64,000 bases of DNA from Candidatus Falkowbacteria bacterium (lineage in GTDB: Bacteria > Patescibacteriota > Patescibacteriia > Patescibacteriales > WJLG01): positions 389,618-453,617 of the forward strand of contig CAVVFV010000010.1 of NCBI GenBank assembly GCA_963747695.1, written 5' to 3'. The notes below the pieces were generated by a model, which saw only the letters and a list, made by a program, of their open reading frames with translations, made no database searches and had not been told where the DNA came from. Made by a program: the position numbers and the translations under genes. Positions 34,488-36,474 of the stretch are shown here, piece after piece (the stretch's first letter is position 1; each line of letters opens with the position of its first letter).

Positions 34488-36474
34488 AGAGTTTGATCCT
34501 GGCTCAGGATGAACGCTGGCGGCGTGTCTAAGGCATGCAAGTCGAATGGGTTTAGACCCATGGCAAACGGGTGAGTAACACATTGGTAACCTACCTCGAA
34601 GACGGGGATAATCCGGCGAAAGCTGGGATAATACCCGATGATGATGGGGGGACATAAGTCATTCCCATTTAAAGATTTATCCCTTCGAGAGGGGCCTATG
34701 GTCCATCAGCTAGTTGGCGGAGTAAAAGCCCACCAAGGCTAAGACGGATAGCGGGCGCGAGAGCGTGACCCGCCTCAGTGGAACTGAGACACTGTCCACA
34801 CTCCTACGGGAGGCTGCAGTCAAGAATCTTCCCCAATGGCCGAAAGGCTGAGGGAGCGACGCCGCGTGTATGAAGAAGCTCTTCGGAGTGTAAAATACTT
34901 TTCTCTGGGACGAATTTTGACTTTACCAGAGGAATAAGGAGCCGCTAACCTCGTGCCAGCAGCGGCGGTAATACGAGGGCTCCAAGCGTTATCCGGATTT
35001 ATTGGGCGTAAAGGGTACGTAGGTGGTTTGACGCATCTTTCGTTAAATCCCGAGGCTTAACCTCGGGGCCGCGGAAGAGATGGTCAGACTAGAGACCGGA
35101 AGAGGCAAACGGAATTGTTGGTGTAGGGGTTAAATCCGTTAATATCAACAAGAACACCAAATGCGAAGGCAGTTTGCTAGGACGGTTCTGACACTGAGGT
35201 ACTAAAGCGTGGGTAGCGAATAGGATTAGATACCCTAGTAGTCCACGCCTTAAACGTTGAATGCTGAGTATTGGAGGTTTCGACCCCTCCAGTGCTGCAC
35301 TTTTAAGTTAACACGTTAAGCATTCCGCCTGGGTAGTACGAACGCAAGTTTAAAACTCAAAGGAATAGACGGGGACCCGCACAAGCGGTGGAGCATGTGG
35401 TTTAATTCGACAATAAGCGAGGAACCTCACCAAGGTTTGACATCTAGCTGCAAGGCCTAGAAATAGGCCCGCCTTCGAGGGTGCTAGACAGATGCTGCAT
35501 GGCTGTCGTCAGCTCGTGTCGTGAGATGTACCGTTAAGTCGGACAACGAGCGCAACCCCTATCCTATGTTTTATATGTCATAGGAGACTGCCCGTTTTAA
35601 ATGGGAGGAAGGTGGGGATGACGTCAAGTCAGCATGGTTCTTACACCTTGGGCGACACACATGCTACAATGGGGAATACAAAGGGACGCCAAGCAGTAAT
35701 GCGGAGCAAATCCCAAAAAATTCCCCCCAATTCGGATTGAGGGCTGCAACTCGCCCTCATGAAGCCGGAATCGCTAGTAATCGAACATCAGCCACGGTTC
35801 GGTGAATACGTTCTCGGGTCTTGTACTCACAAAATCTGCGCCGAGCAGGTTAATTCGGACTTATCGCGATGATAAGTCCAAAAGCTAAACGGTTAAAATC
35901 CGTTCCTCTCTTTTCCGTAAAGAGAGCGTAGCCGAAGGATAGTCAGAATCCGCGAGGAGACTGGCAGAAGGATCCGGAAGCAAACATCAGCCTGAATAAA
36001 AGGAGATTGACAGTCTCGAAAAATAGACAGACGACCAATGAACCGGGTGGTGAGCATTGGGAAGCCTAATATAGAGGTCTAATTCAGGATGTTGGGAAAA
36101 GTGAATTAACTAACCTCGGGAGATCTGACATTGCGATCCCGCTAAGCGGGATAATTGAACTAACGCAGCGTCAGAAGTCAGCTGGTTCGTAGTATTTCGT
36201 CCGTTATCGGATGGAAGAAGGAACCTCTCTAGTGTTTGCTTGGAGATAAATTTGAAGCAAAAAATGCATTAGAGCTCGCTCAGTGCGGGAAATCCGCTCG
36301 CTGAGTGGGAACATCAATTCTCACGTTCATGAGAAGATAATCGCCCGTCACGCCAAGGGAGCTGGTAATACCCAAAGGTCCTGCATTTGTAGGAGCGAAG
36401 GTAAGACTGGTGACAGGGGCGAAGTCGTAACAAGGCATCCGTAGCGGAAGCTGTGGATGGATCACCTCCTTTCT
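34488..36474 (+). rRNA. rrs: 16S ribosomal RNA gene (1987 bp including a 511-bp insertion)
   Basis: Starts AGAGTTTGATCCTGGCTCAG and ends GGATCACCTCCTTTCT. Contains the conserved 515, 785, 1100 and 1390 region strings. Confidence 0.97.
35831..36341 (+). other. ORF-less intervening sequence (intron-like insertion) in 16S rRNA near E. coli position ~1400
   Basis: The conserved string TGTACTCAC|CGCCCGTCA is interrupted by 511 bp rich in local hairpins. No ORF longer than about 60 aa lies inside. Confidence 0.85.

Follow-up and report, generated by a model that had tools for sequence, protein, structure and literature searches.

The window analyzed here is a 64,000-nt stretch of contig CAVVFV010000010.1 (assembly GCA_963747695.1, Candidatus Falkowbacteria bacterium), and it carries a 16S rRNA gene that is split in its decoding region by a 511-nt insert. 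The insert is very probably a group II intron without an open reading frame (ORF), built on a IIC-like ribozyme and belonging to a family that occupies the position between nucleotides 1399 and 1400 of 16S rRNA (Escherichia coli numbering, written 1399/1400 below), mainly in the Candidate Phyla Radiation (CPR, or Patescibacteria); this assessment includes the splicing mechanism proposed below. The insert folds into domains I to VI (DI to DVI) in canonical order, contains a well-conserved domain V, presents an exon-binding site (EBS1) that pairs with the intron-binding site (IBS1) at the end of the 5′ exon, is homologous to longer inserts that bear a LAGLIDADG homing endonuclease gene, and has lost that gene by deletion.

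Position of the Insert in the 16S rRNA Gene

Apart from the insert, the 16S gene (34481–36472, plus strand) is complete. The insert spans 35831–36341, between C1399 and C1400, and the junction reads GGGTCTTGTACTCAC, 511 nt, CGCCCGTCACGCC or, more widely, GTACTCAC, 511 nt, CGCCCGTCA. These boundaries are unambiguous and cannot be shifted, because the insert begins with A and ends with U, with C at both exon edges. In the Rfam alignment 34481–35830 covers positions 1 to ~1399 of the small-subunit (SSU) model and the alignment then strays into the insert, its reported end at 35893 being wrong; 36342–36472 corresponds to the 3′ end of the model (CGCCCGUCA...CACCUCCUUU, or CGCCCGUCA...GGAUCACCUCCUUU). 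The insertion site belongs to the single-stranded 1397–1400 strand of the decoding center, where there is no helix tip. The folding energy of the insert is −177 kcal/mol, compared with −136 ± 6 kcal/mol for shuffled sequences (z = −6.8).

A preliminary description of this DNA, made from the sequence, had reported a 511-bp insertion near E. coli ~1400, which the sequence and the Rfam alignments confirm. Its reading of the insertion as intron-like, and of the 16S gene whose decoding region is interrupted as CPR-type, is supported. Its statement that the insert is ORF-less also holds, as internal ORFs of at least 60 aa are absent and the longest, of 54 aa, is antisense. The 61-aa antisense ORF that it mentioned exists (36280–36465) but does not lie inside the insert, since it overlaps the 3′ junction. 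The four hairpins that it quoted are all present, each as part of the conserved fold (Table 1). The 16S sequence of the window is 73.6% identical to that of E. coli and 98.1% identical to that of the Patescibacteria metagenome-assembled genome (MAG) at locus L014. Judged by this 98.1% identity to L014, a record titled Patescibacteria group bacterium, the host of the intron is a member of CPR/Patescibacteria, with the caveat that record titles are not fully reliable.

A Family of Inserts at the Same Site

Homologs were collected from species-representative genomes and JGI metagenomes by means of a 16S 5′-exon anchor followed by TGYG or TGCGC within 12 nt. A complete homologous insert is present at the same site in 47 of the 59 scanned loci, which answers the comparison with same-site inserts elsewhere that had been proposed in the preliminary description. 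Together with the window copy these make 48 inserts, 39 of them unique, with lengths of 432–1100 nt. The hosts of the 47 homologs are mostly Patescibacteria-titled records or untitled metagenome contigs. Three further loci have a related insert placed 3–4 nt further downstream, after CACCGC(C) (Table 1).

Exon Recognition and the 921:1396 Pair

The 5′ exon ends in IBS1, CUCAC (35826–35830), which contains U1396 at 35827 and is complementary to GUGAG in the terminal loop of a DI hairpin. Among the 39 unique introns, exons reading GUACUCAC are always accompanied by GGUGAG in this loop (28/28) and exons reading GUACACAC (CACAC) always by GGUGUG (11/11), without exceptions. In the downstream-shifted lineage, inserted after CACCGC(C), the same loop reads GGGCGG and matches CCGCC, which constitutes a third covariation state. 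Covariation in three states is what EBS1–IBS1 pairing predicts, and it puts the predicted 5′ splice site directly after C1399. An alternative 5′ splice site just before CUGCG, by which AAAAU would be kept in the rRNA, was rejected: the linker varies between subtypes in both length and sequence, the exons are constant, and EBS1 pairs up to C1399. A contact like δ–δ′ of IIA introns is conceivable between the G immediately preceding EBS1 and the base with which the 3′ exon begins; both bases are invariant, so that no covariation signal is possible.

The apparent rRNA partner of U1396 is the A at E. coli position 921. Of 37 loci (L001–L058), 26 have A:U at 921:1396 and 11 have U:A, the arrangement of E. 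coli; other combinations do not occur, and the EBS1 variant changes in step. The two positions thus seem to form a base pair that has been flipped, probably located where helix 28 ends, and the corresponding base of the intron's EBS1 (GGUGAG or GGUGUG) follows it.

Domain V, Domain VI, and the 3′ End

Domain V reads CUCGCUCAGU-GCGG-GAAAU-CCGC-UC-GCUGAGUGGG. In 24 distinct domain V sequences its 14 pairs are formed in 99.7% of cells, compared with 34–44% for slid registers; five of the pairs (44 cells) show compensatory changes, and CUCGC/GUGGG is invariant in all 24 sequences. Counted from the UC bulge, which lies at the canonical distance, CGC stands at the place of the catalytic triad (6–8 pairs below), with its G in a G·U wobble. 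A CGC triad with a G·U wobble is the arrangement of group IIC introns, for example that of Oceanobacillus iheyensis.

Compensatory changes in the 6-bp stem of DVI are visible in the type-A alignment. In each of the nine sister DVI variants the 3′ strand has a single bulged nucleotide; it lies 8–9 nt from the 3′ splice site and four pairs up from the base, and is A in eight of the nine. The intron ends in ...GAUAAU before the exonic C, and the AU at 36341 fits the AY rule of group II introns. In the minimum-energy fold AUCU (35834–35837), at the end of the linker, forms a 4-bp helix with AGAU (36335–36338), and this helix competes with the base of DVI. As a real contact this end-to-end pairing was dropped, there being no covariation and the complementarity being missing in one subtype.

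Ribozyme Fold and Database Models

A consensus structure of DI–DIII computed with RNAalifold from 36 homologs comprises 96 pairs, formed in 93.5% of cells against 76.8 ± 0.4% for column shuffles and 35–47% for slid registers. Compensatory changes are found in 76 of the 96 pairs, and every DI helix has some. The DII consensus helix has 14 bp, nine of them compensatory pairs, and its predicted 3′ strand reaches 36179, into the span assigned to the junction J2/3. At the 5′ end UGCG is invariant across the family, and the first DI helix starts directly after it; an A/U-rich linker of 4–7 nt (examples are AAAAU, AAUAU, AAUAA, and AAAUAA) is found in all 39 unique homologs. At L014, the closest 16S relative, the intron is 1100 nt long, the DI hairpin equivalent to 35856–35879 of the window is larger by roughly 170 nt, and the tip of DIII (window 36195–36216) has undergone a repeat-rich expansion, GAAATCAGATATCAGATATCGG...CCGAAATCCGAAATCAG. 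By this comparison the peripheral loops of DI and DIII tolerate fast growth and the core is fixed.

A search of 901 nt with Rfam, which the preliminary description had proposed for group I and group II models, matched RF01998 (group-II-D1D4-1) to 36140–36223 with 28.8 bits and E 0.0042, below the gathering score of 35. The match is due to the motif GUCAGAAGUCAGC...UAGUA...GAAGG. In six loci full-length homologs from this site reach 36.3–47.3 bits, above gathering; the window copy itself is sub-threshold. The clear model hit by which, according to the preliminary description, the unclassified status would be removed is thus reached only indirectly. No group I model was matched at E ≤ 10 when the insert, and separately its 3′ part, were scanned with Rfam at permissive settings, in keeping with the earlier view that the insert is not of group I. 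The accompanying proposal that such inserts are unclassified, the class of ORF-less ones being unsettled, was not borne out: domain V, the EBS1–IBS1 pairing, the covariation of DI–DIII, and the literature on this site all indicate group II. A blastn search of the intron against 72,556 plasmids found no match, and so provided no annotated group II relative.

Loss of the Endonuclease Gene

Inserts of 817–1100 nt contain an ORF of ~140–170 aa between DIII and DV, in the place of domain IV (DIV), and its stop codon overlaps the base of DV. The ORF proteins of three relatives are single-domain Pfam LAGLIDADG_1 proteins (E 1e-18 to 1e-21). Where the two can be aligned, the window intron shares ~96% identity with the 915-nt intron of L013 and L059, from which it differs by the lack of ~400 nt; its last 93 nt are 100% identical. 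In this relative the missing ~400 nt are bracketed by AATT, which suggests that the endonuclease ORF was lost by a microhomology deletion between AATT repeats. Positions 36252–36272 of the window (TTGAAGCAAAAAATGCATTAG) are the last seven codons and the stop of the lost ORF. Hosts whose 16S is 96–98% identical to that of the window (L014, L022, L055, and L013) have ORF-bearing copies, and the loss in the window is therefore recent. The other ORF-less copies (432, 439, 443, 484–487, and 511–512 nt) have other deletion end points or represent other subtypes, and thus the gene has been lost several times. Of the family's alignment columns conserved to 95% or more, the window copy has the consensus base in every one (135/135), and the ribozyme has therefore not decayed.

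Proposed Splicing Route and Its Alternatives

The intron would be transcribed within pre-16S rRNA and would fold into domains I–VI. EBS1 (GUGAG, 36050–36054) would then pair with CUCAC (35826–35830) and so place the bond after C1399 in the active site of domain V. The first step would most likely be hydrolysis, with water attacking after C1399 and no lariat being formed, because a 5-nt linker precedes (C)UGCG and DVI is without a bulged A. The 3′-OH of C1399, its exon held by EBS1, would attack the bond between U36341 and C36342, by which GUACUCAC-CGCCCGUCA would be restored and a linear intron freed. Terminal linkers at the 5′ end of LAGLIDADG-bearing group II introns have been linked to loss of the branch-point A, and a shift to hydrolysis has been proposed for them (Liu et al., 2026; PMC13190283). 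Introns that have no functional branch point are excised in linear form, and some of their lineages have joined homing endonucleases (PMC4748821). The ancestors of the window intron probably moved at the DNA level by means of a single-domain LAGLIDADG homing endonuclease encoded in DIV, and the present copy would be a fixed, splicing-only intron after loss of the ORF. ORF-less copies persist in an essential gene of which CPR genomes typically have one copy, which argues that splicing is probably independent of the endonuclease.

Several observations weigh against this interpretation. The DVI of the window subtype has no bulged branch-point A on its 3′ strand, and canonical GUGYG is absent from the junction, where CAC is followed by AAAAUCUGCG; the motif lies 5 nt inside the intron and starts with C, a displacement that is family-wide. 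The window copy scores below every Rfam gathering threshold. The Rfam model of domains V and VI, RF00029, has no match in the window at E ≤ 10 and none in any homolog at its gathering score. The assignment to IIC, which is probable, is based on the CGC triad, on the absence of an obvious EBS2, and on published descriptions of a neighboring family rather than on class-level phylogeny. That the intron splices, that the exons are ligated, and where exactly the 5′ cut falls are predictions from the sequence. Sister subtypes, in addition, have a similar linker and nevertheless the canonical bulged A in DVI, four pairs up from its base, so the linker by itself is no proof of hydrolysis.

This last point speaks for classical branching of the same group II intron, in which A36335 or A36334 would attack the 5′ splice site and a lariat would be released. 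Branching is unlikely here. Shifting the stem by one register could leave A36335 unpaired, 7 nt away from the 3′ splice site, and lariat formation in vitro is known for some group II introns that bear LAGLIDADG genes (rns-952, as cited in a passage of PMC13190283). In the minimum-energy folds of every type-A variant, however, both adenosines are paired and the sole bulge (AA) is on the 5′ strand. The UGCG motif is preceded by C or A and not by the G of the 2′–5′ bond, and published work ties 5′ linkers to the loss of branching (PMC13190283, PMC4424553).

It is far less probable that the insert is a decaying or inactive relic which is not spliced, being either kept in the rRNA or cut by host nucleases to give a fragmented 16S like that produced from RNase III-processed intervening sequences. 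The endonuclease gene is gone, the copy falls under the Rfam thresholds, and bacterial rRNAs fragmented at intervening sequences are known (mentioned in PMC11270868). Against a relic stand the near-invariant family positions, all of them intact, and the preserved domain V, EBS1, and 3′ AU. Repeated loss of the ORF with retention of the ribozyme core likewise argues for continued selection on splicing. Intervening sequences processed by RNase III replace a helix tip and have ends that form a long stem; the insert does neither, as its site is the single-stranded 1397–1400 segment and its ends pair over at most 4 bp. There is next to no likelihood that a group I intron or another non-group-II ribozyme was missed by the models. 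Group I is the commonest class among CPR rRNA inserts, with 35% of 16S inserts in the figures quoted from PMC11270868, but the model scans described above were negative for it, and the conserved elements are those diagnostic of group II. The preliminary description had observed that the flanks are unlike the U and G of group I; the exon ends in C here and the intron in U. An assembly artefact or chimera that joined foreign sequence into the 16S gene is just as improbable. It has only the general risk of metagenome assembly in its favor, and the same element is present at the same nucleotide of 47 other, independently assembled contigs, so the insert is neither chance nor artefact. EBS1 matches the local exon sequence, and the leader–trailer stem (see Gene Context) encloses the whole gene including the insert.

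Relation to Known Introns

Inserts at site 1400 were first seen by Brown et al. (2015), and CPR rRNA inserts have been reported to be removed from transcripts (both as related in PMC11270868). In the survey of Tsurumaki et al. (2024, J Bacteriol; PMC11270868), the passages on this class give 53 group-II-like inserts among 378 CPR 16S inserts, all at position 1400 (16IS9). Of the 53, 39 have LAGLIDADG ORFs and 14 are ORF-less, none has a reverse transcriptase, and the two kinds are very similar outside the ORF. The family described here agrees with the 16IS9 set in gene, site, and host group, in its ORF-bearing majority and ORF-less minority, in the lack of reverse transcriptase, and in the high similarity outside the ORF. 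The group II cut-off of that survey was Rfam E < 1e-5, which the window copy misses with its 28.8 bits (E 0.004, 901 nt searched); it would probably have been counted there as an unclassified long insert. Domain-level structure, EBS1–IBS1 pairing, the 5′ linker, and the state of DVI, which are worked out here, are not mentioned in those passages of the survey.

Giant sulfur bacteria harbor rns-1396, one bacterial family that likewise interrupts the 16S decoding region (Salman et al., 2012; Liu et al., 2026). It belongs to IIC, has a linker in all members and no EBS2, and encodes a single-LAGLIDADG ORF in domain IV; it was stated to be restricted to Thiotrichaceae, although Table S4 of the same paper has one Candidatus Saccharimonadota entry (Liu et al., 2026; PMC13190283). 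By description, which is the basis of this comparison, both families share the decoding region, a IIC-type backbone, the 5′ linker, the missing EBS2, and the single-LAGLIDADG ORF in domain IV. The rns-1396 site given in Table S4, UGUACA/CACCGC (1396/1397; PMC13190283), is 3 nt upstream of that in the window, and the EBS1 of rns-1396 contains UGUAC whereas that of the window is GUGAG. Since site and EBS1 differ, the window intron is not a member of rns-1396 by site. Together these make three neighboring sites on the decoding strand, and at each of them EBS1 fits the site: the published rns-1396 (1396/1397), 1399/1400, and the position after CACCGC(C). The name Tsurumaki does not occur in the text of Liu et al. 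(2026; PMC13190283), and the CPR survey is apparently uncited there.

Fungal mitochondrial rRNA introns are reportedly excised as linear molecules by hydrolysis. As summarized in a passage of PMC4424553 from Li et al. (2011, RNA 17:1321), splicing of fungal rRNA introns takes place 1–33 nt before GUGYG, and both EBS2 and the branch site have disappeared from them. The fungal mitochondrial introns of subclass IIB1 resemble the present family in their rRNA location, their extra 5′ nucleotides, the loss of EBS2 and branch site, and the possession of a LAGLIDADG ORF or none. They differ from it in subclass (IIB1 versus IIC-like), compartment (mitochondria), and insertion sites, and the fungal IIB1 and 1399/1400 introns are likely of independent origin. 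The IIC introns of the Oceanobacillus iheyensis type presumably share with the window intron the CGC triad with its G·U wobble and the AGAAGUCAGC...UAGUA...GAAGG motif, and both have a compact domain I. In vitro, introns of this type splice mainly by hydrolysis (PMC4748821). Typical IIC introns are inserted downstream of transcription terminators, encode a reverse transcriptase, and carry GUGYG at the junction, in contrast to the window intron with its location in an rRNA gene, its homing-endonuclease lineage, and its 5′ linker.

The window intron belongs to a family already known at this site in CPR and to a kind reported in 2015, 2024, and 2026; it overturns nothing in current understanding. 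The domain-level model, the perfect covariation of EBS1 with the exon, the link to the flipped 921:1396 pair, and the contrast in DVI between subtypes may be new, and are of modest specialist interest. A broader proposal can be made tentatively, although taken as a whole it is slightly more apt to fail than to hold: the 1399/1400 introns would be a second distinct bacterial lineage of endonuclease-associated IIC-like introns, overlooked by the 2026 survey; the sites 1396/1397, 1399/1400, and 1403/1404 would each be held by a relative with a retargeted EBS1; EBS1 would track the flipped 921:1396 pair (U-A to A-U); and the window subtype would have given up branching for protein-free hydrolysis in the usually single-copy, essential 16S gene.

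Inserts of this kind break 16S gene callers, and the universal-primer target 1392–1406, which also includes the U (not A) at 1396, is split by the intron. Surveys based on Rfam score cut-offs would leave the well-preserved window copy unclassified. With intact, expanded, and ORF-deleted copies in hosts whose 16S is 96–98% identical, the family forms a clean natural series of the life cycle of a homing-endonuclease intron, and it shows the exon-binding site of a ribozyme following changes in the host rRNA.

Gene Context and Further Observations

The features of the locus are collected in Table 1.

Table 1. Features of the interrupted 16S rRNA gene and its intron. Coordinates refer to the window unless a locus is named; hairpins quoted in the preliminary description are marked (q).
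Feature	Coordinates	Strand	Basis or remarks
16S rRNA 5′ exon (E. coli 1–1399)	34481–35830	+	Rfam RF00177, 1310.8 bits
A at E. coli 921	35367	+	apparent rRNA partner of U1396 (35827)
5′-terminal linker AAAAU	35831–35835	+	separates (C)UGCG from the 5′ splice site
CUGCG, counterpart of the group II 5′ consensus GUGYG	35836–35840	+	first base C here, A in sister subtypes
Domain I	35841–36119	+	RNAalifold consensus
DI(i)	35841–35845 with 36115–36119		DI helix
DI(ii)	35848–35856 with 36103–36111		DI helix
Extra lineage-specific DI hairpin (q)	35856–35879		
DI hairpin	35888–35904		
DI hairpin (q)	35905–35928		
IC arm	35931–35981		
ID arm	35985–35997 with 36082–36094		
EBS1 loop GGUGAG	36049–36054	+	terminal loop of DI hairpin; GUGAG (36050–36054) pairs with exon CUCAC (35826–35830)
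Domain II	36120–36172	+	stem 36120–36135 with 36164–36179
DII tip hairpin (q)	36136–36152		
J2/3 (AGAAGUCAGC, 36173–36182) and domain III (36184–36225; UAGUA and GAAGG motifs)	36173–36225	+	RF01998
Domain IV, reduced to a hairpin by the loss of the endonuclease gene	36226–36274	+	fold −16.1 kcal/mol; alignment with ORF-bearing relatives
Domain V (q)	36275–36309	+	35 nt: 10-bp lower stem, 2-nt bulge (UC) on 3′ strand, 4-bp upper stem, GAAAU loop
Domain VI (AUC[AA]UUCUCA-loop-UGAGAAGAU) and 3′ tail AAU	36313–36341	+	folds of all DVI variants
16S rRNA 3′ exon (E. coli 1400 to 3′ end, with anti-Shine-Dalgarno)	36342–36472	+	Rfam alignment
Downstream-shifted intron locus	L008 208–243		own LAGLIDADG ORF
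Downstream-shifted intron locus	L018 1156–1190	-	own LAGLIDADG ORF
Downstream-shifted intron locus	L024 7628–7663	-	own LAGLIDADG ORF

At gathering thresholds Rfam reports nothing but the 16S gene in the whole window, and neither Rfam nor ARAGORN finds a 23S, 5S, or tRNA gene in these 64 kb, so the 16S gene stands alone and the rRNA genes are therefore unlinked. A near-consensus promoter (TTGACA at 34140–34145 and TATAAT at 34161–34166, with a 15-nt spacer) is located upstream of it. A leader segment (34284–34326) and a trailer segment (36567–36608), each of ~43 nt, are 88–90% complementary and enclose the whole 16S gene including the intron; this pairing looks like a typical RNase III processing stem of pre-16S rRNA.

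A number of public MAG records in the homolog set seem to be mislabelled. Seven loci (L002, L003, L006, L007, L009, L018, and L019) are titled 'uncultured Gammaproteobacteria', with 16S sequences ~75% identical to that of E. coli (tested for L002 and L003), and L013, titled 'Candidatus Nanoarchaeia archaeon', has a bacterial 16S that is 96.5% identical to that of the window. With titles this unreliable and 16S at ~75% identity to E. coli, the 'uncultured Gammaproteobacteria' loci do not bear on a possible link to giant sulfur bacteria. At L005 (346–1200), on a contig titled Anaerolineae, a family member with an intact LAGLIDADG ORF interrupts a 16S gene that stands in a standard operon with tRNAs, 23S, and 5S, and its host may lie outside CPR.

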